The notes: generated from the sequence alone by a model not told the origin. DNA of 64,000 bases from Puniceicoccales bacterium (GCA_031257405.1 JAIROS010000002.1:10512-74511); one strand, 5' to 3'; shown: positions 5,937-62,060, numbered from the stretch's first letter. Translations and numbers: made by a program.

Positions 5937-8093
5937 CTACGAACGCGCCGCCGCACGACTCGACGTCTCCACAATTTTCTGTAACAAATTCGCCGGGACC
6001 TGCTCAAAATGCGAGGGTTCCATCGAGTAACTCGCCCGCCCCTTCGTCAAAGAACGTACGTCCGTCGCGTAACCAAACATCATTTCCAACGGAACAAATG
6101 CCGTAATATTCGCCAACGTACCCTTCGTTTCCATGTTCTGAATCTGCCCCCGCCGCCGATTTAAATCGCCCACAACATCACCCTGATACTCCTCCGGCGT
6201 CGCAACCTCTACCTTCATAATCGGCTCCAGTAAAATAGGTGCCGCCTTCCTCATCGCATCCTTAAACGCAAATATACCCGCCATTTTAAACGCCATCTCC
6301 GAAGAATCTACCTCGTGAAAACTGCCATCCACAATGCGCGCACAAAAATCGACCACCGGATACCCAGCCACAACACCATTCGACGCCCCCTCCAATATGC
6401 CATCCTGCGTCGGCTTAATGTACTCCTTCGGAATCACCCCGCCCACTATCTCATTCAAAACCGATACTCCCTCGCCGCGCTGCACCGGCTCTAACTTGAT
6501 TACCGCATGACCATATTGGCCGCGCCCCCCCGATTGGCGTATGAATTTTCCTTCTCCGGTCGCTGATCCCGTAACCGTCTCCCGATAGGCTATCTGCGGC
6601 CGCCCAGATGTCGCATCAACGCTGAATTCCCGAAATAAACGATCGCAAATAATCTCCAAATGTAACTCGCCCATCCCCGCGATCAACGTCTGCCCCGTCT
6701 CCGGATTCGTTACCACCTTAAACGTCGGATCCTCCTCCGCTAAACTTTGTAAACCAAATGCTAATTTTTCCTGATCCGCCTTCGATTTCGGCTCAATGGA
6801 CATACTAATGACCGGCTCCGGGAAAGTCGGCGGCTCCAAAATCCCATCAAACGAACGGTCACAGAGCGTATCGCCCGTCGCTATGCCCCTCACGCCAATA
6901 ATCGCACAAATATCCCCCGAATAGGCAATGTCAATGTCCTCGCGATCATTCGCCTTCATAATCATCAGACGACTCACCCGCTCCGTCTTGCGCGTGCGCG
7001 GATTATAAACCGTGTCGCCTTTCCGCAATTGCCCACTGTATACGCGGCAAAATACCAATTTCCCTACGTAGGGATCGCTCATCAACTTGAATCCCAACGC
7101 CGTCATCTTACCCAAATCATCGGGCCGAATGCCTATTTCACTTCCATCATCCAAAAATGCCCTCGTCGGCGGTAAATCGATCGGCGACGGTAAAAAATCG
7201 ACCACCGCATCCAATAACATCTGTACACCGCGCTTCTTAAACGCACTCCCCGGTATCACACCCACAAAATCCAATGACAATGTCGCTTTTCGCACCGCTA
7301 AACGAATCATGTCCTGCGAAATGGCTTCGCCCCCCAAATACGCCTCCGCTAACCCATCGTCGTAGTCCGCTAGCGCCTCAATCAAAGATTCGCGGTACTC
7401 CTCCGCCTGCTTCCGATAATCCCCGGGAATCTCCACCTCGTCGAACCTCTCTCCCAACGGATCCTTCGCATCATATAAATAGGCCCTCATGGCAATTAAA
7501 TCAATCAGGCCCTCAAATTTGTCTTCCGCACCAATGTTGAGATATAAAGGGTGTGCATTTTTTCCCAGTTTCGTGCGAATATCCTCGACGGCACCCAGAA
7601 AATTCGCCCCCGTGCGGTCCATTTTGTTAATAAACGCAATGCGCGGCACGCCATATTTGTCCATCTGCCGCCAAACGGTCTCCGACTGCGGCTGTACCCC
7701 GGCTACCGCACAAAATACCCCAATCGCACCATCTAAAACCCGCAGCGAACGCTCCACTTCCGCCGTAAAATCGACGTGCCCTGGTGTGTCAATGAGATTA
7801 ATTTGGTGGTTGATCCCAGCAAATAAACCTACCTTCGTCCGCCAACCACAACTAATCGCCGCCGAAGTAATCGTTATGCCGCGCTCCCGCTCCTGCGCCA
7901 TCCAATCCGTTACCGCCGTCCCGTCGTGCACCTCCCCCATCTTGTGCACAACCCCAGCGTAGTACAAAATGCGCTCCGTCGTCGTCGTCTTCCCCGCATC
8001 AATGTGCGCCGCAATCCCTATGTTGCGCGTGTATTCCAACGCCGTCCTGCGATTGGGGGCATTCGCCACCGAAATTTTCCTGTCGACCACCAT
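5937..8093 (-). CDS. fusA: Elongation factor G
   Basis: The ORF track gives 5937..8117 with a TTG start. The ATG at 8093 (MVVDRK...) avoids overlap with rpsG. G-domain motifs: NIGIAAHIDAGKTTTTERILYY and DTPGHVDF. Confidence 0.95.
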   Translation of the reverse strand: MVVDRKISVANAPNRRTALEYTRNIGIAAHIDAGKTTTTERILYYAGVVHKMGEVHDGTAVTDWMAQERERGITITSAAISCGWRTKVGLFAGINHQINLIDTPGHVDFTAEVERSLRVLDGAIGVFCAVAGVQPQSETVWRQMDKYGVPRIAFINKMDRTGANFLGAVEDIRTKLGKNAHPLYLNIGAEDKFEGLIDLIAMRAYLYDAKDPLGERFDEVEIPGDYRKQAEEYRESLIEALADYDDGLAEAYLGGEAISQDMIRLAVRKATLSLDFVGVIPGSAFKKRGVQMLLDAVVDFLPSPIDLPPTRAFLDDGSEIGIRPDDLGKMTALGFKLMSDPYVGKLVFCRVYSGQLRKGDTVYNPRTRKTERVSRLMIMKANDREDIDIAYSGDICAIIGVRGIATGDTLCDRSFDGILEPPTFPEPVISMSIEPKSKADQEKLAFGLQSLAEEDPTFKVVTNPETGQTLIAGMGELHLEIICDRLFREFSVDATSGRPQIAYRETVTGSATGEGKFIRQSGGRGQYGHAVIKLEPVQRGEGVSVLNEIVGGVIPKEYIKPTQDGILEGASNGVVAGYPVVDFCARIVDGSFHEVDSSEMAFKMAGIFAFKDAMRKAAPILLEPIMKVEVATPEEYQGDVVGDLNRRRGQIQNMETKGTLANITAFVPLEMMFGYATDVRSLTKGRASYSMEPSHFEQVPANLLQKIVETSSRAAARS

Positions 8094-12000: not shown

Positions 12001-13203
12001 TACCGTGTGCACAAATCCTAACTCCCGTAACCGCCGAATAATAAACGGTTCAAACAGTACAAGCGCCATCTTTTTGGGCAGCCCACATTGATGCAATTTC
12101 AGCTCCGGACCAATCACAATCACCGAACGCCCACTGTAATCGACCCGCTTCCCTAACAAATTCTGCCGGAAACGCCCCTGCTTTCCCTTGAGCATGTCGC
12201 CCAAAGATTTCAGCGGACGATTCCCCGCCCCTAAAATCGCTTTTCCGTGGCGACCATTGTCAAATAGCGCGTCCACCGCCTCCTGCAACATCCGCATCTC
12301 ATTGTGTACAATCACATCCGGCGTTTTCAATTGCATCAAACTCTTCAAACGACCATTGCGATTAATTACCCGACGATACAAATCATTCAAATCACTCGTC
12401 GCAAAACGCCCCCCATCAAGCGGAACTAAAGGCCGCAAATCGGGCGGTAATACCGGCAGCGCCTCCAAAATCATCCACTCCGGACGTACCCCGGATCGTA
12501 AAAATCCCGATACCAATTTGAGCCGCCGAGCTAATTTTTTCTTCATCTGCTTCGAATTCGACGCGTACATCTCCTCCTGAATGTTGTAAATCATCTCCTC
12601 CAAATCCATCTCCGATAAAATCTCGCGAATCGCTACCGCCCCCATCTTCGCCACAAATGCATCGTCCCCATACTCCCCGCGTAACCGCTCGTACTCCTGC
12701 TCCAAAATTAATTGGCGCTTCTTCAGCGGCGTCATCCCCGGGTCCGTCACCATGTAACTCTCATAGTAAATCACTTTTTCAATGTCCCGCACCGACATGT
12801 CAAGGAATAATCCCAAACGGCTCGGTAAACTCTTTAAAAACCAAATGTGGGCAATGGGAACCGCTAACTCCACATGCCCCATCCGCTCGCGACGTACCCG
12901 CGAAAGCGTAATCTCTACCCCACAACGATCACAAATTACCCCCTTGTACTTAATGCGCTTGTACTTCCCACAAGCACACTCGTAATCCTTGGTGGGCCCA
13001 AATATCTTCTGGCAAAAAAGTCCGCCCGGCTCCGGCTTAAAAGTACGATAATTAATGGTCTCCGGATTCTTAATCTCCCCGCTCGACCAGGAACGAATCG
13101 CATCCGGCGAAGCAACCGATATGGCTACCATATCAAAGTCGCTACTCTGATCTAACCCCAAAAACTCCTTTACTTTCTCCGTACTCATGTCAAATTTTTT
13201 CAT
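9058..13203 (-). CDS. rpoC: DNA-directed RNA polymerase beta-prime subunit
   Basis: 1381-aa ORF with the catalytic [16 protein letters not shown] motif and the zinc-binding CxC...CxxC N-terminus. An alternative ATG at 13188 abuts the rpoB stop. Confidence 0.98.
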
Positions 13204-16200
13204 GCTCCGCGTAAATCTCGTTATGTTCCAAACGAATATCGAGACACAAACTCTGGATCTCCTTCATCAAAACATTAAACGACTGCGGCACGCCCGCTTG
13301 CAGCGATCGATCGCCCTTTACCAGCGATTCGTAAGCCTTCGTCCGCCCCTGGACGTCGTCGGATTTCACCGTCAACATCTCCTGCAGCGTGTAAGCCGCA
13401 CCGTACGCCTCAAGCGCCCAAACTTCCATCTCCCCAAATCGCTGCCCACCATACTGCGCTTTCCCCCCAAGGGGCTGCTGCGTAACCAGACTATAAGGCC
13501 CGACCGCACGCGCGTGAATTTTGTCCGCCACCAGGTGATTGAGCTTCATCATGTAAATATAGCCCACGACCACTTCCTGATCGAAGCGCTCCCCCGTTCG
13601 CCCGTCAAACAATACACTTTTACCGCTTTCGGGCAAATTCGCCTTCTCCAAATACTCGCGGATCTGCGACTCCGGCATCCCGTCAAATACGGGCGTCGCA
13701 ATTTTTATGCCCAATTTTTCACACGCCCAACCCAGATGCGTCTCCAAAACCTGCCCGACATTCATCCGACTCGGCACCCCAAGCGGATTCAAAATAATAT
13801 CGACGGGCGTCCCATCCGGTAAAAATGGCATGTCCTCGCTGTGCACAATCTTCGACACCACACCCTTATTGCCGTGGCGCCCCGCCATCTTATCGCCGAC
13901 GTGAATTTTTCGTTTATTGGCGACGTAAACTTTTACATTTTTAATCACGCCACTCTCCGCCATGTCGCCCGCTTCGATCGCCTCAATCCGCTGCAAACGC
14001 TCGTTTTCCAGGTCAATAAACTTCTGCCGATAGGCGTCAACAATCTCCAAAATGCGGTTCTTAACCGGCGAAGCGGGGATTTCCAACGCATCAAAACATG
14101 CCGCAATGCGGCGCAATAACGTCTTCGTAATCTTGCGATTCGCCGCGATAATAGTCTCGCCCGTGTTCCTATTGGAAATATCGAGGGGAATTTTCTCCCC
14201 AAGCAGTATGCTCGAAAGCGACTCCGTCAAATCATCCTGCAATTTGTCCAGCTGGCTCCGAAATTCTTCATTCGTCTTCTTTACAAAACGGCGCACGTCC
14301 GAATCAGTCATATCCTCTTTTTCATGGCCAATATTGCTGGAAAATTTTACATCCATTACAATTCCTTCACACCCCGGCGGCACCACTAGCGACGTGTCCT
14401 TCACATCCGACGCCTTTTCCCCAAAAATCGCACGCAATAACTTCTCCTCGGGGACCAAATCCGTTTCGCTCTTCGGCGTAATCTTCCCCACCAATATGTC
14501 GCCGGCCTTGACCTCCGCGCCAATGCGTACAACGCCATCGCGATTCAAATCCTTGAGCGCCAAATCACTCATATTGGGAATGTCGCGCGTGATCTCCTCC
14601 GCCCCTAACTTCGTGTCGCGCGCCACCACCTCAAATTCCTCGATGTGGACCGACGTAAAAATATCCTCCTTAACCAAACGATCACTTAAAATAATCGCAT
14701 CCTGGAAATTATAACCATTCCACGGCATAAACGCTACCAAAACATTGCGCCCCAACGCTAACTCGCCACAGTCCGTACCCGCACCGTCAGCTAATACGTC
14801 GCCCGCCTTGACCGCCTGCCCCTTGCTCACAATCGGCCGCTGATTAAAACAGGTCGTCGAGTTGGAACGGATGAATTTTCGCAAATTATAAACATAAATA
14901 CCCGCCGCTGGATTCCCCTTGGGATCCAATTTCTTGGGCATCGTACCATCCTTCGTCACCACAATGCGCGCCGCCACCACCGAAGCTACAACGCCATCCG
15001 CCGCCGCTAGCACCACACTTCTCGAATCCACCGCTACCCGCCGCTCAAGCCCAGTCCCTACAAAAGGCGCCTCCGGCGATAATAATGGTACCCCCTGCCG
15101 CTGCATATTCGACCCCATCAGCGCCCGCGACGTGTCATCGTGCTCCAAAAACGGTATCAAACCCGCCGCCACAGAAATCACCTGCTTCGGCGAAACATCC
15201 ATGTAATCAACCTGCGCCCCCTCAACTTCCAAAAATATATCCCGCTGCCGCGCCGCAATATTCCCCACCAAATTCCCGTCGCCGTCGATTTCCGAATTAG
15301 CCTGCGCAATTATACTATCCCCCTCATCGGTAGCATCCAAATAAACAATTTCCTCGGTCACCTTCCCGCCGCGTACCACCCGATAGGGCGTCTCAATAAA
15401 CCCAAATTCGTTGACGCGCGCAAACGTACTCAGGGAATTAATCAAGCCAATATTCGGCCCTTCCGGCGTCTCGATCGGACAAATGCGGCCATAGTGGGAC
15501 GCATGCACATCGCGCACCTCAAAACCCGCTCGCTCACGACTTAAACCACCCGGCCCTAACGCCGATAAACGCCGCTTGTGCGCCAATTCCGAAAGCGGAT
15601 TGATCTGATCCATAAACTGGGATAGCTGGCTGCGTGTGAAAAAATCGCGAATCGCTCCCATGAAAATTTTCGGATTGACCAGCTTCTGCGGAACAATCGT
15701 ATCCACGCTGTTGTCAAATAGCGCCATCCGCTCCCGAATGAGACGCTCCATCCGCCCTAACCCAGAACGACACTGGTTGACCAGCAGCTCCCCGACATTC
15801 CTGATGCGGCGATTCCCCAAATGATCAATATCGTCCGTGTACTCCTCGCCCTTCTTCAGACGGCATAAAAATTTCGTCGCCTCGACGATATCCACCGTAT
15901 CGATCAGGCGATTCTCCAAATCCTTATTTAATTTCAGGCGCTGATTCATTTTTTTCCGCCCCACGCGCCCCAGATCGTAGCGCTTCCGCTCAAAAAATAA
16001 ACGCGACATCGTCCCATTCGCATTATTCGCCGTCACCGGCTCGCCCGGCCGCAAACGTTTGTAAATTTCGCGTAAAGCATCCTCCGTATTTTTCGCCGGA
16101 TCCCGCTTCAGCGTGCGAATAATTAAACCATCATCCGCCGCCACATTGACCACCTCCAAATGATCAATGCCCGCCATCTCAAACGCCTGCAGTAACCCCT

Positions 16201-21533: not shown

Positions 21534-21639
21534 CCGACAGAGTCGAAATCCGCCGCGGGAGACATCACTTGACGACTCTCGGTTAGGAATTTGCGAATCG
21601 CAGGGCACTTGGTCAATCTTTATTTTGTATATTTGGTCT

Positions 21640-21884
21640 ATTTTTTTAATTGTCGAGTTTTCTCCGCCCCATTGGGCGATTTACGGCATAAAAAATCAAA
21701 AAAAGCAGATAAAGCATTTAAAAATAGAATAAAAAAATATCTCCAATCCAAAACAGTGGAGACTTCAAATCCGGAGCAGAAAATTTTTATCCGCCCCGGA
21801 TGAATTTTATTTAAATAAGTTTTACTTAATATTTAGATTTAGATGCCAGAAGCCCCCCTTCTGAAAGCCCCAATTCCGACCTAT
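21640..21884 (-). repeat. Ankyrin-cassette copy 0 (3'-flank of ank1; degenerate promoter half)
   Basis: Aligns by eye with the four other cassettes. It carries the hairpin ccggagcag...ccgccccgg (21771..21799), a CCATTGG box (21669..21675), and ttgtcgag in place of ctgtcaag. Confidence 0.8.
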
Positions 21885-22712
21885 CTAACGCCAAAAAAAT
21901 CCACCAGGAAAGAAATCACGTAGCCTCTCAAAATATGAAGCAGTATCTTCTTTATTACGCTCTTCGTTTGTTTTCCCTCCGTTCGCACGCAATAGAGCCA
22001 CTAAATCTTTCACTACTTCGTCCTTCAATCCCTTTTTATTCTGAAAAACCAAATCTATCGGGGTCTGGCCAGTATAAATGGGAGCCATTGAGGCTAAAAC
22101 TAGACCGGGAATATTATTAGTCCTAGTATTTACATCTGCGCCATTGTCCAGCAAAAATCGAACAACATTTTTGTGGCCATTCTCCGCGGCATAATGCAGA
22201 GGCGTTCGCCCTTGATTGTCCCTAGCATTCACTGGAATGTTGTTTCTAAGGACAAGGAATGTAACAATATCAAACTGGCCTCCCTCCGCGGCATAATGCA
22301 GCGCGGTCTTGCCCTGACCATCCTTAATTTTCTCATCTGCGCCATTGTCCAGCAAAAATCGAACAACCTTTTTGTGGCCATTCTCCGCGGCATAATGCAG
22401 CGCGGTCCTGCCCTCATTAAGACCACCTTTCGCCCCAGCATTCACATCTGCGCCATTGTCCAGCAAAAATTGAACAACATTTTTGTGGCCATTCTTCGCG
22501 GCATAATGCAGCGCAGTCTTGCCGTTGTTATCCCAATTTTTCACATTTTTGTCAGACATATTTCTCACGACACATTCGCAGTCGCCTTTTTTTGCGGCTT
22601 GAAAGAACCAGTCATCTCGAAACTCTTCACTCCCCAGAAGATAATTTGCACCTAAGAAGTAACTGCCCACTACCATATATTTAATCATACTTTTTTTATC
22701 TAACTTATTCAT
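21885..22712 (-). CDS. Ankyrin-repeat protein, paralogue 1 (leader type A: MNKLDKK...)
   Basis: 275-aa ORF with repeated 33-aa units (GKTALHYAAKNGHKNVVQFLLDNGADVNA...). It has an N-terminal Ser/Gly-rich hydrophobic leader and an AAAGGAAAA Shine-Dalgarno sequence upstream. Confidence 0.92.
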   Translation of the reverse strand: MNKLDKKSMIKYMVVGSYFLGANYLLGSEEFRDDWFFQAAKKGDCECVVRNMSDKNVKNWDNNGKTALHYAAKNGHKNVVQFLLDNGADVNAGAKGGLNEGRTALHYAAENGHKKVVRFLLDNGADEKIKDGQGKTALHYAAEGGQFDIVTFLVLRNNIPVNARDNQGRTPLHYAAENGHKNVVRFLLDNGADVNTRTNNIPGLVLASMAPIYTGQTPIDLVFQNKKGLKDEVVKDLVALLRANGGKTNEERNKEDTASYFERLRDFFPGGFFWR

Positions 22713-23036
22713 AATATTTTCCTTTCGGTAACCGAACTACCAAGCACATTAATTTCAATCTGTCAAGAACTTTTTTTTTATTTTTTTTGAAAAATTTAGC
22801 ACAGCCCGAAAATTCCCCGCTCCATTGGGCGAGTTGCGGTACAAAAATCAGAAAAATATTAAAAAACAAAATAAAAAACATCCCCAATCCAAAACGGCGG
22901 AGACTTCAAAACCGGAGCAGAGAATCTCTCCCCGCCCCGGATAAATTTTATTTAAATAAGTTTTATCTAATATTTAAATATATAAGTTTTACCTAATATT
23001 TAGGCGTTAATAAGCTCCGGCAGTACGTCTCTGTGC
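22713..23036 (-). repeat. Ankyrin-cassette copy 1 (between ank2 stop and ank1 start)
   Basis: Contains the hairpin (22912..22940), a CCATTGG box (22822..22828), a T-rich tract, and TTGACA (22761..22766) with TTGGTA (22738..22743). Confidence 0.85.
22738..22766 (-). promoter_or_regulatory. Putative promoter of ank1 (TTGACA-N17-TTGGTA)
   Basis: A perfect -35 hexamer preceded by an A-tract. The block TTGACAGATTGAAATTAATGTGCTTGGTA is identical upstream of ank4, and similarity stops right after TTGGTA. Confidence 0.5.
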
Positions 23037-23819
23037 CTAGGATTTAAAACCAGGCAGTTTCCGAAACCAGCTCCGCCAGCTCCTTTCTTGCAAGACTTCA
23101 GCGCCTGTTTTCGCTCCGCGTGCCAGCAATAGAGCCTTTATTTGTTCACGCCGGGCCCGATCCCGATTCTCACACTCCTCGACCAAATCTAGCGCGGTCT
23201 TGCCCTTATCCCGGCCACCAATCACCGTAACATTCACATTAATTCCAGGTGCAGTTAGCAACATTTCAACGATCTCTGTTTTGCCCCATCTTACGACATC
23301 ATGGAGCACGGTATAGCCATAGATATCCGCAGCATTCACATTAATGCCTCGTCTGCCTAGCAACAATCTAACGGTCTCTTTGTTCCTCTTGCGGAACTCT
23401 GTTACGGCCAAAGAAAGCGCGGTATAGCCACTATTGTCCTTAGCATTCACATCGGCGCCTGCGCCTAGCAATAAGTTAGCGTTATCTACGCGGCCATACA
23501 TTGCGGCCCAATGGAGCGGGGTCCTGTTCCATCTATCAGCCCTATCCCTAGCATTCACATCGGCGCCTGCGCCTAGCAACAATTTAACAACTTCTATATT
23601 ATCCCACTGTACGGCACAATGAAGCGCGGTCTCGCCGCCAATTTCACTCCTAGCATTCACATCAATGCCTCCGATTAACGCCGCCCGAACACCTGCTACA
23701 TCGCCCTTTGCTGCGGCTTGATGGAGCGGTGTCCATAGCCCCAGAAGACAATTTGTACTTAATAGGCAACTACTCGTTGCCACACATTGAACTATATTTT
23801 TTATATCTGCGTTTCGCAT
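23037..23819 (-). CDS. Ankyrin-repeat protein, paralogue 2 (leader type B: MRNADIKNIVQCVATS...)
   Basis: 260-aa ORF with ankyrin units (TPLHWAAMYGRVDNANLLLGAGADVNAKD...). Confidence 0.92.
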   Translation of the reverse strand: MRNADIKNIVQCVATSSCLLSTNCLLGLWTPLHQAAAKGDVAGVRAALIGGIDVNARSEIGGETALHCAVQWDNIEVVKLLLGAGADVNARDRADRWNRTPLHWAAMYGRVDNANLLLGAGADVNAKDNSGYTALSLAVTEFRKRNKETVRLLLGRRGINVNAADIYGYTVLHDVVRWGKTEIVEMLLTAPGINVNVTVIGGRDKGKTALDLVEECENRDRARREQIKALLLARGAKTGAEVLQERSWRSWFRKLPGFKS

Positions 23820-24134
23820 AACATATTGTACAATAATACATTTTTAACACTTGGCAAGAATTTTTTTATTTTTTTTTGAAAAATTTTAGCGTAACCTGAA
23901 AAATTTCCCCGTTCCATTGGGCGAGTTGCGGTACAAAAATCAGAAAAATATTAAAAAACAAAATAAAAAAAATATCCCCCATCCAAAACGGCGGAAACTT
24001 TAAAGCCGGAGCAGAAAAATTTTCCCACCCCGGACGAATTGTATCTAAATAAGTTTTACTTAATATTTAAACATATAAGTTTTACCTAAACTCAGGCATC
24101 AATCAACTCCTTTAATGAGCCTTCGCCGCCTCTA
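23820..24134 (-). repeat. Ankyrin-cassette copy 2 (between ank3 stop and ank2 start)
   Basis: Near-identical to copy 3 over about 250 bp. It carries the hairpin (24006..24033) and a CCATTGG box (23914..23920). Confidence 0.85.
23825..23857 (-). promoter_or_regulatory. Putative promoter of ank2 (TTGCCA ... TGTACAAT extended -10)
   Basis: The minus strand reads aaaaaaattcTTGCCAagtgttaaaaatgtattatTGTACAATatgttATG. The -10 lies only 5 nt from the ATG and no Shine-Dalgarno sequence is present. Confidence 0.4.
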
Positions 24135-24989
24135 TTATTCTTCTGAATCTAAATATGCTGCTGCTGCTTCTTCTGCTTCTTTTCGCTGCAGCCGCTTCTG
24201 CCTCCGCAAGCTCAGTATCCGTTTTTGCTCCGCGTGTCTATGCAATAGACCCACTACTTGGGTATGATCTCTCTCATAAGCCAAATCTAGCGCAGTTTTG
24301 CCTCTGTCATCCTTAGCATTCACATCGGCATCTTTCTTTAGCAACAATTCAACAACATCTACGTGACCCTTCGCCGCGGCCAAATGGAGCGCAGTCTCGC
24401 CTTTCTCGCCTTTAGCATTTACATTTGCGCCTGCGTTTATCAATAATTTGACGGGGACTTCGAGGCCCACTACTGCGGCGTTATGAAGCGCCGTCCAGCC
24501 CTTTTCCTCGCCATTACTCACCGTAGCATTCACATTAATGCCAGGTGCAGCTAGCAACAGTTTAACAGCCTTTTTTTGGCCCCAGTCTGCGGCAGTATGG
24601 AGAGGAGTGTAGCCATTTTCGTTCGTAACATTCACGTCCGCTCCTGCGTCTATTAACATTCCAACGACCCTTCCGTAGCTGTCAAATGCTGCGGCCAAAT
24701 TGAGCGCGGTATCGCCACCATCAGTCTTAGCATTCACATCAATGTCGGGCATATCTAGTAATATTTTAACGATCTTTGGGGATCTCGGTGTGACCAAATG
24801 GAGCGCTGTCCAGCCCTCTTCATTCTTAGCATTCACATCAATGCCTCCGATTAACGCCGCCCGAACACCTGCTAAATCGCCATTCGCTGCGGCTTTATGG
24901 AGCGCGGTAGTCCCCAGACAACTTACACTTAAGAAGCAACCACTCGTTGCCACACATTGAACTATATTTTTTATATCTGCGTTTCGCAT
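24135..24989 (-). CDS. Ankyrin-repeat protein, paralogue 3 (leader type B)
   Basis: 284-aa ORF. The first 16 residues are identical to ank2, followed by ankyrin units (GWTALHLV..., GETALHLAAAKGHVDVVELLLKKDADVNAKD). Confidence 0.92.
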   Translation of the reverse strand: MRNADIKNIVQCVATSGCFLSVSCLGTTALHKAAANGDLAGVRAALIGGIDVNAKNEEGWTALHLVTPRSPKIVKILLDMPDIDVNAKTDGGDTALNLAAAFDSYGRVVGMLIDAGADVNVTNENGYTPLHTAADWGQKKAVKLLLAAPGINVNATVSNGEEKGWTALHNAAVVGLEVPVKLLINAGANVNAKGEKGETALHLAAAKGHVDVVELLLKKDADVNAKDDRGKTALDLAYERDHTQVVGLLHRHAEQKRILSLRRQKRLQRKEAEEAAAAYLDSEE

Positions 24990-25338
24990 AACATATTGTA
25001 CAATAATACATTTTTAACACTTGGCAAGAATTTTTTTATTTTTTTTGAAAAATTTTAGCGTAACCTGAAAAATTTCCCCGTTCCATTGGATGAGTTGCGG
25101 TACAAAAAACAGAAAAAAACCTAAAAACAAAATAAAAAAAATATCCCCCATCCAAAACGGCGGAAACTTTAAAGCCGGAGCAGAAAAATTTTCCCACCCC
25201 GGACGAATTGTATCTAAATAAGCTTTACTTAATATTTAAACATATAAGTTTTACCTAAACTCAGGCATCAATCCGCTCCTTCAAGACGTCGCGCCTCTGC
25301 TTCAAGTTCTTCAGCTCTCGCCTGAAGCCCTTGTGCCT
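24990..25338 (-). repeat. Ankyrin-cassette copy 3 (between ank4 stop and ank3 start)
   Basis: Same module as copy 2, with the hairpin (25175..25202) and a CCATTGG box (25092..25098). Confidence 0.85.
24995..25027 (-). promoter_or_regulatory. Putative promoter of ank3 (same TTGCCA / TGTACAAT block as ank2)
   Basis: Sequence identical to the ank2 upstream block. Confidence 0.4.
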
Positions 25339-26736
25339 CTATTCTTCTTCTTCTTCAAGTTCAGCGCCTCTTTTCGCTCCACGTGCCAGCAATAGATCCC
25401 TTATTTGGGTATAATTTCCACGATTAGCAAAATCTAACGCAGTCTCGCCATATTCAACCTTAGCATTCACATCGGCATCTTTCTCTAGCAACAATTTAAC
25501 AACATCTACGTGGCCCTTCGTCGCGGCCACATGGAGCGGCGTATAGCCATTTTTATTCTTAGCATTCACATCTAGGCCGTCCGCAGCTAGCAACGCTTCT
25601 ACGGCCTTTACGTAGCCCTTCTGTAGGGCTAAATCTAACGCTGTCTTGCCATCTTCAGCCGTAGCATTCACATCGGCATCTTTCTCTAGCAACAATTGAA
25701 CAACATCTACGTAGCCCTTCTGTAGAGCTAAATCTAACGCAGTCTCGCCATATTTATTCTCAGCATCCACATCAATGCCGGGTGCAGTTAGCAACAATTT
25801 AACGAAATTCAAATTGTCATTCATTGCGGCATAATGGAGCGCCGTATAGCTTGTGTTATCCTTAGCATTCACATCTGCATTTTTTTTTAGTAACAATTGA
25901 ACAACCTCTACGTAGCCATTCAGTGCGGCCTTAATGAACGCTGTCTCGCCATATTTATCTTTAGCATTCACATCTGCATTTTTTTCTAGCAACGCTTTAA
26001 CAACATCTACGTGGCCCTTCGTCGCGGCCACATGGAGCGCCGTCTTGCCTAATTTATCCTTAGCATTCACCACAATGTTGGATACAGCTAGCAACGATTT
26101 AACAACATCTACGTGGCCATTCTCTGCGGCCAAATGGAGCGCGGTCTGGTCCAAGAAATTCACAACATTCACATTTGCGCCGAAATACATAAGAGATTTA
26201 GCAACAGCTACGTGGCCATTCTCTGCGGCATAATGGAGCGGCGTATAGCGGTAGCTATCCTTAATATCCACTGCTGCGCCTCTAATGGGGATAAAGTATC
26301 TAACAATATCCAAGTGGCCCATCTTTGCGGCCAAATGGAGCGCCGTTTTGCCTCCGTTATCCCTAGCATCCATATTTGCCTCTAATTTTAGCAACTTTTT
26401 TACGATATCGCAGTGACCATTTTCTGCGGCATAATGGAGTGCCGTCTTACTCTTACCCTTACCATCAGTCACCTTAGCATTCACATCTATGCCGTAATTC
26501 ATAAGAAATTCAACGACATTCAAACGGTTATTCGCTGCAGCCTCAATGAACGCGTTCTGGATTTTTTCGTTCTTACCATTTATCTCAATGAGGGATATTG
26601 CATTTTCAACGCCTTCTAAATCGCCATCTCTTGCGGCCTCAATGAGCGCGGTAGCCCCCTGAAGATAACTTGCACCTAAGAGGTAACTACTCACTACCAA
26701 ACCTTTAATTATATTTTTTTTATCTAACTTATTCAT
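25339..26736 (-). CDS. Ankyrin-repeat protein, paralogue 4 (leader type A)
   Basis: The ORF track gives 25339..26781. The ATG at 26736 (MNKLDKKNIIKGLVVSSYLLGASYLQG) matches the ank1 start and has the same Shine-Dalgarno sequence. It contains about 12 ankyrin units. Confidence 0.92.
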   Translation of the reverse strand: MNKLDKKNIIKGLVVSSYLLGASYLQGATALIEAARDGDLEGVENAISLIEINGKNEKIQNAFIEAAANNRLNVVEFLMNYGIDVNAKVTDGKGKSKTALHYAAENGHCDIVKKLLKLEANMDARDNGGKTALHLAAKMGHLDIVRYFIPIRGAAVDIKDSYRYTPLHYAAENGHVAVAKSLMYFGANVNVVNFLDQTALHLAAENGHVDVVKSLLAVSNIVVNAKDKLGKTALHVAATKGHVDVVKALLEKNADVNAKDKYGETAFIKAALNGYVEVVQLLLKKNADVNAKDNTSYTALHYAAMNDNLNFVKLLLTAPGIDVDAENKYGETALDLALQKGYVDVVQLLLEKDADVNATAEDGKTALDLALQKGYVKAVEALLAADGLDVNAKNKNGYTPLHVAATKGHVDVVKLLLEKDADVNAKVEYGETALDFANRGNYTQIRDLLLARGAKRGAELEEEEE

Positions 26737-27010
26737 AATATTTTCCTTTCGACGACGACATACCAAGCACATTAATTTCAATCTGTCAAGAACTTTTTTT
26801 TATTTTTTTGAAAAAAATTTAGCACAGCCTGAAAATTCCCCGCTCCATTGGGCGAGTTATAATACATAAAATCAGAAAAAATATTTAAAAATAGAATAAA
26901 AATATCACTCATTACATTAATTTCAATCTGTCAAGCTTTTTTTATATTTTTTTGAAGAAATTTTCCCGCTCCATTGGGTAAGTTGCGGTACAAAAAACAG
27001 AAAAAAACCT
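26737..27010 (-). repeat. Ankyrin-cassette copy 4, with two promoter modules in tandem
   Basis: TTGACA at 26784..26789 is the functional ank4 copy, and a second one lies at 26929..26934 with no ORF behind it. There are two CCATTGG boxes (26845..26851 and 26971..26977). Confidence 0.8.
26761..26789 (-). promoter_or_regulatory. Putative promoter of ank4 (TTGACA-N17-TTGGTA)
   Basis: Identical 29-nt block to the ank1 promoter. Confidence 0.5.
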
Positions 27011-27205
27011 AAAAACGAAATGAAAGATGGCTTTTCGGCCTTTTAATCGAAGAATTTTCGGTAAAAATATCCATTAAATTTTATCAATAAAACACATCTC
27101 TCGAGTGTGCTTTTTGTCGGCGACTTCAGCCGCAACCCATCGCTTTTCGGCCCCTTAGTCGAAGAATTTTCTTGCCGCCACCAATTATTTTATATTTTTT
27201 TGACC

Positions 27206-28153
27206 GTGAATATTCTAATGACAGGCGCCGGCGGGTACATCGGTAACCACTGCACGCTGAAACTCCTCCCCTCAGGACACTCCCTCTTCGGCCTCGACGC
27301 CGTAAAACCTAAATATACATCCCTTTTCCGAAATTTTTACACCGGTGACCACGGCAATACCGCTCTGGTACAACGCATTCTAAAGGAGGAGCGCATCGAG
27401 TGTATCATCCACGCTTCCGGCTCGTCAAACGTCATGGATACGGTCCAAAACCCAATAAAATATTACTGCAACGACCTCATGGGAACTATATTCCTCCTCC
27501 AAACGGCCCTTGAAAATAATGTGAAAAAATTAGTTTTTCTCTCTTCGGCGCAGGTCTACGGCAACAGCTCGCCACTGTCGGCCACGGAAAATACGTCGCC
27601 CAATCCTATTAATCCAATGGGGAAAATAAAGCTCGCCATCGAACAATTAATCGAGTCGCTGTCAATTTCTCACGACCTGCACTACGCCATTTTACGGATT
27701 TCAAACGCCATTGGTATGGATCATCAGGCGGAAAATTTCCCGTCCAATGGCGACCTGCTCTCCCAAATATTACTCAATGAGTCGCTCGACCTGTTCGGCA
27801 CCGATTTTAATACGGCGGATCATCGGGCGGAACGCGATTTTATCCATGTCAATGATGTGGCGCAGGCCGTTTTACAGGTACTGCCAAAACTCGGCGGCTT
27901 CCAAAAGAATTTTTGCTACAACATTGCTTCTGGCAAGAGTTATTCGGTGGCGGATTTCGTCAAATTTGTTGAAAAAGCGGCGCATTTGACCGTCACCATT
28001 GATCCTCGGGAGCGGCGGAGCGGCGAAATCGAACGCCTCGCCATCGACCCGTACTCTGCCCAACGGGAACTCGGCTGGCGCCCGCAATATTCGTTGGAAT
28101 ACATGATCGAATCAAGCGTCAATTGGCTCAAAACTCACGAAATCTGCATCTAA
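27206..28153 (+). CDS. NAD-dependent epimerase/dehydratase, GalE-like, catalytic Tyr replaced
   Basis: The ORF track gives 27107..28153. The likely start is GTG 27206 or ATG 27218, before the Rossmann motif MTGAGGYIGNH. FLSSAQVYG is conserved, but the YxxxK motif reads MGKIK. Confidence 0.8.
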   Translation: MNILMTGAGGYIGNHCTLKLLPSGHSLFGLDAVKPKYTSLFRNFYTGDHGNTALVQRILKEERIECIIHASGSSNVMDTVQNPIKYYCNDLMGTIFLLQTALENNVKKLVFLSSAQVYGNSSPLSATENTSPNPINPMGKIKLAIEQLIESLSISHDLHYAILRISNAIGMDHQAENFPSNGDLLSQILLNESLDLFGTDFNTADHRAERDFIHVNDVAQAVLQVLPKLGGFQKNFCYNIASGKSYSVADFVKFVEKAAHLTVTIDPRERRSGEIERLAIDPYSAQRELGWRPQYSLEYMIESSVNWLKTHEICI

Positions 28154-28159
28154 CTTGAA

Positions 28160-28545
28160 CTAAAAATCCCCCATTGTCAAGACGTTTTTCGGAAATGTTT
28201 TGAAAACTAAATATCTCGGCCTGGAAAAATAAAAAATAACACCAGCGAAAATTAGAATTCCAAACGCGGCATTCTCCCCACCCTCTGCACCTAGCCAATC
28301 AGAAAAATTTCCAATTGTCAAGGCGTTTTTTGGAAATATTTTAAAAATTAAATATTTCGATTCGGGAAAGTGAAAAATAACACCAGCGGAAATTAGAATT
28401 CCAAACGCGGCATTCTCCCCGCCCCATGTACATAGCCAATCAGAAAAATTTCCAATTGTCAAGGCGTTTTTTGGAAATATTTCAAAAATTAAATATCTCG
28501 ATTCGGAAAAGTGAAAAATCAAACAATCGCACAATACTTACCCAA
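28160..28545. repeat. Tandem repeat, 141-bp period, about 2.7 copies
   Basis: The anchor ttgtcaa recurs at 28174, 28315 and 28456. Each unit carries a minus-strand TTGACA-N17-TTGGCT plus GGGGCGGGGAGAATGCCGCGTTTGGAATTC. Confidence 0.9.
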
Positions 28546-28632
28546 TCCGCTAAACTTTTTCACCTTATCCCAAAATTTCATACTTTACTATTGCCAAAAT
28601 ATATAAAATTCTTCCCATCTCCCATAACCCCG

Positions 28633-28709
28633 CGGGGCGTAGCTCAGCTTGGTAGAGCGCATGTTTTGGGTACATGAAGTCATCGGTTCGAGTCCGGTCG
28701 CCCCGACCA
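28633..28709 (+). tRNA. trnP: tRNA-Pro (anticodon TGG)
   Basis: Hand-folded: CGGGGCG-TA-GCTC-AGCTTGGTA-GAGC-G-CATGT-TTTGGGT-ACATG-AAGTC-ATCGG-TTCGAGT-CCGGT-CGCCCCG-A-CCA. Confidence 0.92.
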
Positions 28710-47879: not shown

Positions 47880-49225
47880 GTGGATCTCAGAGGTCACCTC
47901 CAGCAAACCCAGACTCAGCGGCTATCGCCGGCGATGCTGCGGGCGCTGAATATTTTACAATTACCCGCCGTCGAACTTTACCAACTCGCCGCCGAAGAAA
48001 TCCGACGCAATCCGCTCCTCGACATCACGGCTGCCGACGCTTTTTCCCCCATTTTTTCCGCAAGCGGGAACGCGGAAGATATTGATATAGGCGCGCGCGC
48101 GATATAGTTGACGATGAAAAAAGCAAGCAAAATTTTTTAGAAAATATTGCGGCGGAACGTTCTCCGGAGGATTATCTTTTAGCGCAGGTGCCCGATCTGG
48201 ACGAAACCACGAAATCGGCATTGGCAACGCTGATTAGCAACCTCGATGGGCGCGGATTTTTGTCGGAGGATGTGGCGCAACAATTCGGAATCTCTCCCGC
48301 AAACGGCGAAGAGAATCGCGATTCGGCTTCCAAAAATTTGCCGGAAAATGTTTTTCAAAAAGCTTACAAAATTTTACGATCGCTTTCGCCGAAGGGCATC
48401 GGCGCTCGAGATTTACAGGACTGTTTTTTGCTGCAAATCCCACAAAATACGCCGCTTTACGAGCTCATCGCGCAGCATTTCGACGACCTGGAATATCGCC
48501 GTTTTGTTAAATTACGACGAAAACTTGGTAAAACGCAAACCGAATTACGTGCGCTGCTGGCGCCCCTAAAGTCACTCAACTTCGCCCCGCTCAAGACGAT
48601 TACGCCGCACACCAATCCGACAATAATTCCGGAAATTATTTTCAAAAAAACCGATCGCCGGTGGAGTTTCGAGCTTCGTGGCCCACCGGAAATGAGGATG
48701 AGCGACCTTTACAAAACGCTGCTTATCCGCCCGCTGAAGGGCGAAGAGCGTGATTTTTTTACAAAAAATAAACAAAATGTTCAATTTTAGATTCAATCGC
48801 TGCATCAACGTCGGGAAACTTTACAAAAAATTGCCCAATATATTTTGAAATTTCAGAGTGATTTTTTGGAAAATGGCCACGCTTCACTGCGCCCGCATCA
48901 TCAAAAACAAGCCGCCGCGCTCCTGCACGTACACCCCTCCACACTCTCGAGGGCGATCCAAAATAAATATGCTCAGACGCCGCACGGAACGGTTCCGCTG
49001 CAATTTTTCTTCTCCCACGGCAATCACGGCTCACTCATCGCACAAAACGCCCTCCGCGAAAACATCAAAAATATGATCAAAAACGAAAACAAAATTTCGC
49101 CACTCAGCGACGGAAAAATCGCACAAATCCTCCAAAATGAAGACATTTGGATCGCACGACGCACCATAACTAAATACCGCACACTCCTCAGTATCCCTTC
49201 AGCAAATGTCCGGCGATATATGTAA
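47880..49225 (+). pseudogene. rpoN: RNA polymerase sigma-54 factor, disrupted by one frameshift and one in-frame TAG
   Basis: Three collinear pieces are present. Region I is QRLSPAMLRALNILQLPAVELYQLAAEEIRRNPLL (frame 0, stop at 48105..48107). The core-binding part is GIGARDLQDCFLLQI (frame 2, open from 48086, TAG at 48788..48790). The C-terminal part holds the HTH and RpoN box, HPSTLSRAIQNKY..TP.G...LQFFFS and ARRTITKYR (same frame, to 49225). Confidence 0.85.
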
Positions 49226-49254: not shown

Positions 49255-49335
49255 TTTTAAATTAAAATCCAAACGCGTTACTCGCCCCTCCCTATGTTTT
49301 CTAGCGTGGCACAAATTTTTTCCATTGTCAACTAT
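49255..49335 (-). repeat. Solitary copy of the element repeated at 28160..28545
   Basis: By-eye alignment: aattaaaatccaaacgcgttactcgcccctccc...ccattgtcaac here against aattagaattccaaacgcggcattctccccaccc...ccaattgtcaag in the array, roughly two-thirds identical. It includes a minus-strand AAAAATAG-TTGACA. Confidence 0.6.
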
Positions 49336-49418
49336 TTTTTATATTTAAAAATTTTTTCGACATTTGCGCGGCATTTCCAATATGAATTTCAGGTTTCGGA
49401 TTTTTTGAATCACCGACA

Positions 49419-50750
49419 ATGGAAACGACTATTTTCCGACAGCTCCCCGACGCATTTTTTCACGGCGACTTCCCGGTCGAAATCAGCGGTTTTTGGAACG
49501 ACACGCGGACGCTTCGGCCTGGCGGCTGCTTCCTTGCGCTCACCGCGCGGCGCGACGGCCACGAATTCCTCGCCGATGCACAACGAAATGGCGCCCATTG
49601 CGCAATCGTCAGCCGCATCAACAAAAATTTAACCCTGCCCCAATTCCGCGTCGCCGATGTCCTCGAAGCCGCCAAAACTATTGTAAAAATTTATCGAAAA
49701 AATTATATAATCATTTCCGTGTCCGGTAGCTACGGAAAAACATCCACGAAAGATATGTTGCGGCTACTGTTTGGCGAAAATGCCTACGCGACGGAAGAAA
49801 ATCTCAATAACGAACTCGGCGTCATACTCTCGTTAAGCCGCATAAAATATGAACAATTCGGCATTATCGAAGGCGGAATCGATCACCCTGGCGAAATGGA
49901 TCGCCTCATCGACCTCGTCCGCCCCAATATCTCCGTCACGACCGGAATCGCCTCCGTACACCTCTCAAATTTTGAAAATTTTAATCAATTAATTTGTGAG
50001 AAAGTAAAAATTTTACAAGACGCCCTCGCGCGCAACGGCCACGGCATTGTCCCCGAACATTGCCTGACCCACGCCGCTTTCCGACAATTCGCCGACCGCT
50101 GCACCATCGTCGGCCGCAGCAATCGCCTCGCCCAATACCCGCATTTCACCCAATTCCGACTCGCCAAAAATAATACGATCATTTTGCGCGGGAAATATTT
50201 CCAAAACACCGCTTTTTTACTGCCAGAAATGAGTCTCGGGCAGGCGGAAAACTTCGCCAAAGCAGCCACCGTAGCGAAACTCGCGGGCATCGACGACACC
50301 GTCATTCAAAAAAAAATTTTACAATGGAAGCCGGGGAAAATGCGCGGCGAAACGATTTTTTTCAGGGGCCACGCCGTTTACCTGGACGCCTACAACGCAA
50401 ATCCGGTCGCGATGGACGACGCCCTGCGCCACTTCGACAAAAAATATTCCGGTGAAAAAACTTATATCCTCGGCGGCATGCGGGAACTCGGCCCATTCTC
50501 CGAAAATAGCCACGAAATATTAGCAAAATATTTTTTTAGAAAAAAAAATGCGACGATTTTCGCCATCGGAAAAGAAATGAATACCTTCTTCGAACGGCTG
50601 CGGCGAGCGAATCCCGCAGTAAAAATTTTCTACTTCGAAGACACCGAAACAGCTAAAAAACCTTTATTAAAAGCCATTCGCGGGACAATTTTCGCCAAAG
50701 GTAGCCACGCGTACCACCTGGAAAAAATATTCAGCGACGGCCCCGCTTAA
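49419..50750 (+). CDS. murF: UDP-N-acetylmuramoyl-tripeptide--D-alanyl-D-alanine ligase
   Basis: 443-aa ORF with the Mur-ligase P-loop (ISVSGSYGKTSTKDML), NLNNELGV, and DAYNANP. Confidence 0.9.
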   Translation: METTIFRQLPDAFFHGDFPVEISGFWNDTRTLRPGGCFLALTARRDGHEFLADAQRNGAHCAIVSRINKNLTLPQFRVADVLEAAKTIVKIYRKNYIIISVSGSYGKTSTKDMLRLLFGENAYATEENLNNELGVILSLSRIKYEQFGIIEGGIDHPGEMDRLIDLVRPNISVTTGIASVHLSNFENFNQLICEKVKILQDALARNGHGIVPEHCLTHAAFRQFADRCTIVGRSNRLAQYPHFTQFRLAKNNTIILRGKYFQNTAFLLPEMSLGQAENFAKAATVAKLAGIDDTVIQKKILQWKPGKMRGETIFFRGHAVYLDAYNANPVAMDDALRHFDKKYSGEKTYILGGMRELGPFSENSHEILAKYFFRKKNATIFAIGKEMNTFFERLRRANPAVKIFYFEDTETAKKPLLKAIRGTIFAKGSHAYHLEKIFSDGPA

Positions 50751-50795: not shown

Positions 50796-50824
50796 TTGAC
50801 ACTTTTCTAAAAATCTACACCCTC
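50796..50824 (+). promoter_or_regulatory. Putative promoter of the autotransporter gene (-35 TTGACA)
   Basis: Reads aataaatataTTGACActtttctaaaaatctacaccc. The -10 is unclear. A Shine-Dalgarno AAAGGAAAAAGG precedes the ATG at 50869. Confidence 0.3.
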
Positions 50825-60521: not shown

Positions 60522-60689
60522 GGCTACTGTTCTGTGGGGAATCGCGCCGACTTCAAGCTATTTTTTATCTTTTTGCTCCGTACCCAAAAACCCCTTCCGC
60601 ACCATCTCCCCTTAACCATTCTCCGCCGCCTGCCCACCGAAAAAAGGAAGTGAACTTGCAATGTGGTTTCATTTTTATTTTATCGTGGT

Positions 60690-62060
60690 ATGAATTTGGT
60701 TTCTGTCATCGAAAATCATCGCGATTTGGCCGATATTACCCGCATATTACACGCCCATGGCGGGCATTGTTATCTCGTAGGTGGCGGCGTGCGCGACCAT
60801 TTTCTCGGCATTCCCAGCCACAATTTCGACCTCGAAGTCTTTGGCCTTCCCTCCACGACTATCGTCGACCTCCTCACCCCTCGCTATAAAATCGATTACG
60901 TCGGCAAATCCTACGGCATTTTAAAAATTCGCGGCCTCGACATCGACATCGGCGTCCCGCGTAGGGAGCAGCGCCAAGGGCCATTACACACGGATTTTGC
61001 GGTCCAAGAAGACCCATTTTTACCGCTCGAAGAAGCCATTCGGCGGCGGGATTTTACCATTAATTCCATTTATTTTGACATAAAAAATCGGCAAATCGTG
61101 GATCCTTTTTCTGGGCTCGCCGACCTCGAAAACCGTGTCCTCAAACATACCAGCGAACGTTTTTCCGAAGATCCTTTGCGGGTGCTCCGGGGCATGCAAT
61201 TTTGTGCGCGTTTTACATTGGCGCCCGCTCCGCAGACGACCGCCCTCTGCCGATCGCTCTCCCCAAAATTCCTTTCCCAAGAACGCATAGCCCAGGAATT
61301 TACGAAATTATTACTCCAAGGCACGCGGCCGTCGGCCGGATTACACTTCCTAAAGGACGCAGAATGGACGCAATTTTTCCCGGAACTCCACCAGCTAATC
61401 GGCGTCGAACAGGACCCTACCCGCCACCCGGAAGGCGACGTTTTCGAACACACTTGCTGCGTTTTAGACACTTTTGCGCACAATAGGACGGGGATTTTTG
61501 AGGACGATTTGACGGTCGCCTTCGCGCTACTTTGCCACGATTTTGGGAAGCCCACGACGACGTTTAGAGACAGTCAGGGGATCCACTCCTACTGGCACGA
61601 AATCGCGGGAATTTTACCGGCAGAAAAATTTATGGAGCGCCTATGTCTCGCCAAAAATGTCATATTACAGGCGCTGACGCTAATCCAATACCACATCGAA
61701 CCGCGGCGTCTATTTAAGCATCGGGCATCGGACGCCGATTTCCGCAAGCTCTCCTACAACGTGCGGCGGATTGATTTACTGGCGCTACTGGGGTATTGCG
61801 ACTGTGCGGGGCGGGTGGAACACAACGAGGAAATTCGCGCTTGGATCCTCGAACGAGCCGGGGCGCTTGGCATTTTACAAGCTCCGCCCAAAGCGATTAT
61901 TCAGGGCCGCCATCTCATTGAACTGGGGATTGAGCCGAGCAAAGATTTTTCAAAAATTTTACTAAGATTTTACTTCGCACAACTCAATGGGGATTTTTCG
62001 ACATTGGAGGAGGGGCTTAGCGTAGTTAGGAAGTCGTTGGCGCCGCCCCAAGCCGTGTAA
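60690..62060 (+). CDS. cca: CCA-adding enzyme (nucleotidyltransferase plus HD domain)
   Basis: The ORF track gives 60663..62060 with a GTG start. The ATG at 60690 precedes YLVGGGVRDHFLG, DLEV, RRDFTINSIY, and the HD motif HPEGDVFEHT. Confidence 0.85.
   Translation: MNLVSVIENHRDLADITRILHAHGGHCYLVGGGVRDHFLGIPSHNFDLEVFGLPSTTIVDLLTPRYKIDYVGKSYGILKIRGLDIDIGVPRREQRQGPLHTDFAVQEDPFLPLEEAIRRRDFTINSIYFDIKNRQIVDPFSGLADLENRVLKHTSERFSEDPLRVLRGMQFCARFTLAPAPQTTALCRSLSPKFLSQERIAQEFTKLLLQGTRPSAGLHFLKDAEWTQFFPELHQLIGVEQDPTRHPEGDVFEHTCCVLDTFAHNRTGIFEDDLTVAFALLCHDFGKPTTTFRDSQGIHSYWHEIAGILPAEKFMERLCLAKNVILQALTLIQYHIEPRRLFKHRASDADFRKLSYNVRRIDLLALLGYCDCAGRVEHNEEIRAWILERAGALGILQAPPKAIIQGRHLIELGIEPSKDFSKILLRFYFAQLNGDFSTLEEGLSVVRKSLAPPQAV

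Follow-up and report, generated by a model that had tools for sequence, protein, structure and literature searches.

The spacer between a gene for a GalE-like NAD-dependent epimerase and a tRNA-Pro(TGG) gene in a Puniceicoccales bacterium contains a tandem array of a 141 bp unit. This locus lies in a 64,000 nt stretch of DNA (GCA_031257405.1, JAIROS010000002.1:10512-74511), here termed the window, and all positions are counted from its first nucleotide. The epimerase gene (27218..28153, plus strand; Pfam PF01370, 2e-39, and PF16363, 3.5e-39) is syntenic in all relatives examined, and the tRNA-Pro gene (28633..28709, plus strand) is identified both by ARAGORN and by Rfam as a tRNA (62.8 bits). 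The array itself (28162..28536, described below in its minus-strand reading) begins 9 nt 3′ of the epimerase stop codon and ends 97 nt 5′ of tRNA-Pro. Beyond tRNA-Pro is a minus-strand operon encoding UvrD/PcrA, RibF and TruB; the 3′ end of the UvrD/PcrA open reading frame (ORF) and tRNA-Pro overlap by 30 nt on opposite strands (28680-28709). The epimerase and tRNA-Pro genes form a small island on the strand opposite to that of nearly all genes of positions 1-40000, a region with a plus-strand GC skew of -0.3 to -0.4 that is weaker past approximately 40 kb.

Tandem Repeats Finder delimits the array at 28162-28519, with a period of 141, 2.5 copies, 88% matches and 0% indels. When unit B was used as a BLAST query, the third, partial unit was found to reach 28536, which brings the total to 2.66 units. 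By repeat search and BLAST, unit A spans 28162-28302, unit B 28303-28443 and partial unit C 28444-28536. An initial annotation made from the sequence alone had described a period of 141 bp and about 2.7 units between a GalE-like gene and tRNA-Pro, and this description proved accurate, without a single indel in 28162-28536. Two short-read Logan contigs from run SRR14710907 are identical in sequence to the window, and the one that carries the UvrD-tRNA-Pro side (L001) breaks off within the repeat at window position 28453. A Logan contig from SRR14710918 (L108) likewise ends inside the repeated module. Because both contigs stop there, array copy numbers rest on one assembly each.

On its minus strand the array carries three TTGACA boxes, and the 30 nt located 5′ of each are 70-80% A/T. 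In the core farthest from the epimerase gene (core 3, 28434..28462), TTGACA (28457-28462) is followed after 17 nt by TTGGCT (28434-28439), and the upstream sequence is 77% A/T. Core 2 (28293..28321) has the same arrangement, with TTGACA at 28316-28321, a 17 nt spacer, TTGGCT at 28293-28298 and an upstream A/T content of 80%. The epimerase-proximal core 1 (28152..28180) has TTGACA at 28175-28180 and, after 17 nt, CAAGTT (28152-28157), a hexamer that runs into the stop codon of the epimerase gene (28151-28153); the region around it (28144-28207) gave a partial nhmmer match (E = 1e-5). Thus, although an A-tract, TTGACA, a 17 nt spacer and TTGGCT had been assigned to every unit, only the A/T-preceded TTGACA occurs three times, whereas TTGGCT stands behind two of the boxes. 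In cores 2 and 3, the sequence GGGGCGGGGAG/AGGGTGGGGAG...CGCGTTTGGAATTC comes 8 nt past TTGGCT. This G-rich block begins 8 nt past TTGGCT in unit B (28396..28425, minus strand), where it reads GGGGCGGGGAGAATGCCGCGTTTGGAATTC, and it reads AGGGTGGGGAGAATGCCGCGTTTGGAATTC in unit A (28255..28284, minus strand). The downstream sequence that the initial annotation gave for the units, GGGGCGGGGAGAATGCCGCGTTTGGAATTC, is therefore exact in unit B only, and unit A has it with two mismatches.

Several features of these cores are those of a sigma-70-type promoter. The TTGACA hexamer matches the -35 consensus at all six positions in each of the three boxes, and the A/T-rich sequence before it (70-80%) resembles an UP element, just as in the promoters of rplM, rplA and the ankyrin genes. 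A spacer of 17 nt separates the two hexamers. The second hexamer TTGGCT departs from the -10 consensus, matching TATAAT at two of six positions and lacking the A at -11. The boxes are directed antisense into the 3′ end of the epimerase gene, as the initial annotation had described, and the nearest minus-strand gene is 1.4-1.7 kb away, past the convergent epimerase gene. Downstream of the cores on the minus strand we found no conserved ORF and no RNA family or structure that could represent a product. A terminator scan called no intrinsic terminator 3′ of the epimerase gene and none in the array.

The array cores are not isolated in the window. The pattern TTGACA-N17-TTGG[CT][AT] has four matches in it against 0.02 expected, two in the array (28293-28321 and 28434-28462, minus strand) and two upstream of ankyrin-repeat genes. 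The latter two are the minus-strand promoters TTGACA-N17-TTGGTA of ank1 (26761..26789) and ank4 (22738..22766), and they are the closest in-window relatives of the array core. Their similarity to the array is weak (approximately 70% over 45 nt by BLAST), yet it is the best in the window. Furthermore, when a profile was built from the five ankyrin intergenic cassettes alone, its best matches outside the ankyrin region were the array cores (E = 0.007 and 0.028). The proposal of an ank1/ank4-like promoter geometry on the minus strand is thereby upheld.

By its UvrD and MurF homologues, the window belongs with the uncultured metagenome-assembled genomes (MAGs) of Puniceicoccales (Verrucomicrobiota), and the relatives compared are such MAGs at syntenic loci; the accession batch to which the present MAG belongs is presumably from termite guts. 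The closest relative is GCA_031266235.1 (loci L002 and L105; UvrD 91% identical), followed by GCA_031270475.1 (L003; UvrD 77%), GCA_031259665.1 (L107; 75%) and an ENA contig (L005; 65%), and the comparison also included GCA_031284165.1 (L004), a JGI contig (L007) and GCA_031276935.1 (L109). The window agrees with the L002/L105 genome at 80% of 4-fold degenerate sites (n = 796) and with L003 at 47% of them (n = 459), a saturated value.

A dispersed paralogue of the module lies in the window itself at 49258..49361 on the minus strand, with an A/T tract, TTGACA (49326-49331), a 17 nt spacer, CACGCT (49303-49308) and the downstream sequence AGGGAGGGGCGAG...CGCGTTTGGA. It was matched by BLAST of unit B (E = 0.001) and by nhmmer (E = 1e-19, a value that reflects its being a seed member), and it sits between an rpoN remnant (stop codon at 49225, plus strand) and murF (49419-50750, plus strand). 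Its orthologue in L105 matches the profile from outside the seed (E = 2e-11). In total, pattern and nhmmer searches identified nine copies: units A and B, 49258-49361, the L105 orthologue, one copy in L002, two in L003 and two in L107. L002 has one full module and a partial second box approximately 93 bp away, the two L003 copies are approximately 1.08 kb apart on either side of a prepilin-like gene, and the two L107 copies are 221 bp apart, upstream of tRNA-Pro. The same searches found no copy in L004, L005 or L007. Restriction of the unit to this one locus, which the initial annotation had named as an outcome that would count against its reading, can thus be set aside, given the paralogue at 49258-49361 and the copies in four related contigs. 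The pattern CGCGTTTGGAN{0,1}TTYTAATTT gave 17 matches, in unrelated phyla and at about the number expected by chance, in a genome contig collection that lacks the source genome. A scan of metagenome contigs with UvrD returned only relatives of at most 47% identity, none of them with the module, and a BLAST search of the spacer against phages and plasmids gave zero matches.

Alignment of the nine copies reveals an invariant TTGACA, a T-rich spacer and the block A.AGGG.GGG.G.GA, the G-block columns being conserved in all nine. The GCT of the second hexamer is common to eight of the nine copies; L002 has it only after a 1 nt shift. Specifically, the second hexamers are TTGGCT in both array units, CACGCT in the 49.3 kb copy, CATGCT in L105, CACTGC in L002 (ACTGCT with an 18 nt spacer), AACGCT and AAGGCT in L003 and AAAGCT in both L107 copies. 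An A at -11 together with a T at -7 is present in six of the nine copies and absent from those of the array. Nothing is conserved past about +40. Every copy is antisense to both of its flanking genes, which are co-directional at every locus, and the G-rich end of the module is always 8-100 nt from the upstream stop codon. The conserved stretches of the module fall on the elements of a minus-strand promoter of the sigma-70 type.

Promoters of the same build stand before genes of the window. They consist of an A/T tract, CTTGACA or TTGCCA, a spacer of 16-17 nt and a loose second hexamer, located 34-73 nt 5′ of start codons, and they include those of rplM (39070; second hexamer TAGCGT), rplA (18813), ank1-4 and the genes with promoters at 50796 and 45102. 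The corresponding second hexamers are CACCCT for a gene encoding a 1330-aa autotransporter, CTTGGTA for ank1 and ank4, and TATTGT for ank2 and ank3. A putative -35 element of tRNA-Pro, TTGCCA (28591..28596, plus strand), is found 43 nt 5′ of the tRNA and outside the array. TTGCCA recurs at -41 to -43 of tRNA-Pro in the window, L002, L003, L107 and L109, and TTGCAA occurs at -53 in L004. The second hexamers of these tRNA-Pro promoters are poor and vary greatly, which suggests that a loose -10 element is the norm in this group.

Comparison with relatives also indicates how the array arose. Comparison of units A and B shows 22 mismatches over 141 positions, and that of units B and C shows 3 over 76 in the clean part; at least two duplication steps are thus implied. 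At the same spacer the closest relative, GCA_031266235.1, has no 141 bp period. In both the window and L107, the most similar copy is the one within the same genome (0.92 and 0.89, respectively), whereas the two L003 copies (0.82) are no closer to each other than L003a is to L107a. These similarity values point to duplication (or gene conversion) specific to the lineage, at least for the window and L107. Head-to-tail copies within a spacer, with a period that differs between relatives, are what intergenic tandem duplication of the variable-number tandem repeat (VNTR) type produces. A second, unrelated array is present at 62043-62415 (period 154, 2.4 copies and 91% matches by Tandem Repeats Finder). 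Its unit combines the terminal ~75 nt of a poly(A)-polymerase-like gene (60663-62060) with the entire spacer up to the following gene (62428-63102). This array is lineage-specific, because the corresponding spacer of ~76 nt is single-copy in L105. The formation of spacer duplications of ~150 bp is therefore habitual in the lineage.

The best explanation for the array is, in our estimation, a lineage-specific duplication of a noncoding module that yielded orphan, probably weak antisense promoters of the sigma-70 type by slippage or unequal exchange and not by selection, and we give this account an even chance of being correct. It concerns a repeat that belongs to a family of fixed orientation, is specific to its lineage and shows neither coding nor RNA-structure signals. 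The tandem form is the product of a two-step duplication of a spacer module, one of a small set of related promoter-type elements in these Puniceicoccales. Read on the minus strand, the module consists of an A/T-rich UP-like tract, TTGACA, 17 nt, nnnGCT and a G-rich block. We read its copies as promoters, present or former, that lack a gene of their own; each is aimed back at the 3′ end of the co-directional gene before it. Those of the array are probably weak or decaying, because the A at -11, kept by most other family members, is missing from TTGGCT. If they fire, short antisense RNAs over the epimerase 3′ end would be expected, opposing epimerase read-through towards tRNA-Pro. The tandem form most likely reflects slippage or unequal recombination in a duplication-prone genome and not selection for stacked promoters. 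Among the alternatives offered in the initial annotation, relics of amplified promoter cassettes come nearest to this conclusion.

A number of observations weigh against this explanation. The second hexamer TTGGCT fails a standard sigma-70 consensus scan, which misses TTGACA-N17-TTGGCT because that hexamer agrees with TATAAT at two of six positions and has no A at position 2. The TTGACA hexamer is nearly symmetric, and on the plus strand the scan calls TTGTCA-N16-TATTTT directed towards tRNA-Pro. Moreover, the invariance of TTGACA is partly a matter of ascertainment, because most copies were recovered through a TTGACA pattern or a profile seeded on those matches. The G-rich block is conserved yet has no assigned role. 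Spacer identity to the closest relative is approximately 76%, equal to the neutral level (80% at 4-fold sites), and so indicates no constraint. Core identity to the L003/L107 clade is 0.49-0.62, modestly over the saturated baseline of 0.47, and this retention of the module is the sole, modest hint of constraint. There are 0 indels in 282 bp at 16% divergence. Together with the recurrence of duplication at this spacer in three or four lineages, this might speak for selection instead of neutrality. Finally, we infer promoter activity, an antisense effect and neutrality from sequence.

Selection is the premise of an alternative explanation in which active convergent promoters past stop codons block read-through, by way of colliding RNA polymerases or antisense RNA, and their stacking near tRNA-Pro is adaptive. 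The position of every copy, 8-100 nt past the stop codon of a co-directional gene and aimed back at that gene, is as this insulator model would have it, and so is the lack of a detected intrinsic terminator after the epimerase gene. The persistence of the module in the L003/L107 clade despite 4-fold sites saturated at 47%, the freedom of units A and B from indels and the presence of duplicated modules at one common spacer in the window (141 bp), L107 (221 bp), L003 (~1.08 kb) and partly L002 are also in its favour. However, because both neighbours are always co-directional, module orientation has only two possible states, and independent observations are few. In addition, the array second hexamer TTGGCT is the worst in the family, the G-block is decaying in L105 (GGGAAAGGTGAA), the ankyrin genes of the same window use ordinary hairpin terminators, and the lineage demonstrably undergoes neutral duplication. 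We therefore regard an insulator system as unlikely. A bolder form of the same idea appears distinctly improbable. It posits a lineage-specific class of convergent 'stop-side' promoters immediately past stop codons, each with a strong UP/-35 region and a conserved G-rich initially transcribed block. These would shield neighbouring transcription units through collision of polymerases or short antisense RNAs and would be amplified repeatedly, in separate lineages, at the head-on tRNA-Pro locus, where dosage would matter.

The module could instead function on the plus strand, as an activating or regulator-binding region or as additional TTGTCA-N16-TATTTT promoters for tRNA-Pro and, at 49.3 kb, for murF. 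The scan call corresponds to TTGTCA-16-TATTTT at 28315-28342, each copy is also located 77-190 nt upstream of a plus-oriented gene or tRNA, and in L105 a CTTGACA-N16-GAAGCT directed towards murF stands back-to-back with the module. However, the hexamer that is invariant is the minus-strand TTGACA, whereas the base needed to complete the plus-strand TTGTCA is a C in both L107 copies. On its minus-strand downstream side the box is followed by further conserved sequence (GCT and the G-block), whereas the plus-strand '-10' region on its other side is unconserved and merely A/T-rich. Furthermore, tRNA-Pro owns its conserved TTGCCA box at -43. We favour the minus-strand reading of the module as the better supported one, because TTGACA is invariant, conservation lies on the minus-strand downstream side and the same build is found at real genes; a plus-strand function seems rather improbable.

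The back-to-back pair in L105 (~6010-6045) comprises the plus-strand CTTGACA-N16-GAAGCT and the minus-strand module on a common A/T tract, and it may represent a divergent promoter arrangement; at the position equivalent to the plus-strand CTTGACA, the window has TTCGACA. The rpoN (sigma-54) gene next to the 49.3 kb copy is split into two ORFs, one for the core-binding domain (48188-48790) and one for the DNA-binding domain (48845-49225). No gene is called at the rpoN site of the closest relative (L105 4393-6085), and rpoN is probably a pseudogene in both the window and this relative.

A third possibility derives the units from an ankyrin-type cassette, of which a promoter and a terminator stump remained after loss of a minus-strand gene and were then duplicated. 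Between the four minus-strand ankyrin-repeat genes at 21560-27100 lie homologous cassettes, 230-320 nt in length. Each contains a terminator of the hairpin type (CCGGGGCGGGGAGAG...CTCCGCCGTTTTGG, z down to -3.3), a conserved box (CCCAATGGAGCGGGG), an extended A-run and a TTGACA/TTGCCA promoter, and this gene family appears to have grown through cassette duplication. In addition to the promoter similarity to ank1/ank4 and an orientation as in the ankyrin genes, the array has the 12-mer GGGGCGGGGAGA and a CCGC(C)GTTT(T)GGA motif in common with the ank4-proximal cassette, where they form the arms of one hairpin. The initial annotation had seen in this stretch an echo of the ankyrin cassettes past the promoter. 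The exact 12-mer, however, occurs in one ankyrin cassette only (22927-22938) and is absent from the others. There, GGGGCGGGGAGA and CCGCCGTTTTGG are the two arms of a hairpin with z = -3.3, whereas the corresponding stretch in the array units has no stable hairpin (z = -0.43 and +0.80). The array units thus carry no terminator of the ankyrin-cassette type, whose hairpins score z = -3.3, -1.8 and -1.9, and the cassette profile aligns with the array over the promoter part only, leaving the stretch past the promoter unaligned. The supposed echo is thus a 12-mer common with one cassette and different in role, because it is a hairpin arm in the cassette and is part of no hairpin in the units. The G-block of L003/L107 (AGAGGGTGGGAGCGAGC) is also less terminator-like, and the adjacency of the epimerase gene and tRNA-Pro is ancestral, with no intervening minus-strand gene in any relative. 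Derivation from such a cassette is consequently improbable.

Two further proposals would give the array a product. One of them, which the initial annotation had raised, is an array of small-RNA genes, each unit supplying a promoter, a transcript of ~60-70 nt and a terminator. All copies have a conserved G-rich initial stretch of ~35 nt past the promoter-like core, unit B can be drawn by eye as a long imperfect hairpin with a U-rich arm at its end, and the 49.3 kb copy has an A/U hairpin followed by U8. Against this, single units fold no better than shuffled sequences (z-scores of -0.73, -0.75, +1.56 and -0.69), RNAalifold predicts three pairs for the minus strand and zero for the plus strand and so no consensus structure, Rfam searches at the gathering threshold and at E values up to 10 return the tRNA only, and conservation ends at about +40. 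These results run counter to the proposal and leave small-RNA genes very unlikely. The other proposal, a protein-coding gene with 47-residue repeats, can be dismissed almost entirely: one frame is open across the array (124 aa; 28160-28534, minus strand) and the period is a multiple of 3, but roughly one in four such units would be open in some frame by chance (a rough estimate), the ORF has no Pfam family, its frame contains stops in the 49.3 kb paralogue and is shifted in L002, and the units differ at 4 synonymous versus 23 non-synonymous codons, much as the initial annotation had noted.

Other candidate identities for the module were rejected. No ORF is conserved in either direction, and both a conserved short ORF 3′ of the promoter and a plus-strand ORF ending at a conserved TAG were discarded on account of unconserved peptides. 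An inverted repeat, TTCCAAA..CGC / GCG..TTTGGAA, flanks the core by eye in the array units only; it was rejected as a pair of transposon-like ends because it is missing from the other family copies. Sigma-54 (TGGCAC-N5-TTGC) and sigma-32 (CCCCATnT) readings were rejected by eye, since only one copy fits each. The unit is not recognizable as a decayed epimerase 3′ end, its in-register identity of 33% being non-significant against a background of 26 +/- 4%. In four relatives, a conserved gene of ~235 aa without a Pfam family overlaps the epimerase stop codon (L003 13437-14153, L005 12219-12926, L007 12211-12921 and L107 4300-5016). It is absent from the window, L002 and L004, and tblastn found no remnant of it there, so the spacer was rejected as a relic of this gene. 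The prepilin-like gene between the two module copies of L003 encodes an FTLVEI N-terminal motif, and its start looks frameshifted in an A-run. Directly 5′ of it (L003 ~13110-13215, minus strand in the display) are approximately 10 copies of the octamer repeat AATCAACG.

With regard to known systems, the Wolbachia typing loci VNTR-105 and VNTR-141 are intergenic tandem repeats of host-associated bacteria. The array resembles them in that noncoding units of ~100-150 bp lie head-to-tail in a spacer and that copy number or period varies among close relatives. Unlike them, its unit holds a conserved promoter-type module with paralogues elsewhere. In E. coli, rrnB P1 and P2 are stacked promoters with UP elements at a stable-RNA operon. 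Here too an A/T-rich UP-like tract abuts a consensus -35 hexamer and the cores stand in a row beside a tRNA gene, but the array cores face away from the tRNA, and tRNA-Pro has a separate conserved -35 box. Putative mobile promoters are duplicated or reused promoters located upstream of non-homologous genes (Nijveen, Matus-Garcia and van Passel, 2012, PMC3575422). As in those cases, a similar promoter is found at the array, at 49.3 kb and at ank1/ank4 with no transposase or insertion sequence attached; unlike those cases, no gene follows the array and 49.3 kb copies, which are aimed at the 3′ end of a neighbour. Correia elements, ERIC and REPIN are promoter-bearing intergenic repeat elements (PMC3575422), and the module is likewise a short noncoding intergenic repeat able to carry promoter hexamers. 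In contrast to these elements, it has no conserved terminal inverted repeats and no conserved hairpin, and it occurs at two loci in 64 kb. The closest concept is promoter duplication and reuse without a mobile element (PMC3575422), and intergenic VNTR-type arrays are also close. The array is duplicated promoter-like spacer DNA, which is of a known kind, and no new system.

The locus is a well-documented illustration of the evolution of spacer DNA in a presumably host-associated lineage of Verrucomicrobiota, where promoter-type modules have been copied, left without a gene and tandemly amplified. Related genomes amplify the module independently at the same spacer. If the modules were indeed active antisense promoters that take the place of terminators, their significance would be greater. 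The analysis also bears on promoters in this little-studied group, which appear to combine an A/T tract and a consensus -35 hexamer with very loose second hexamers, a description that is useful for the annotation of MAGs.

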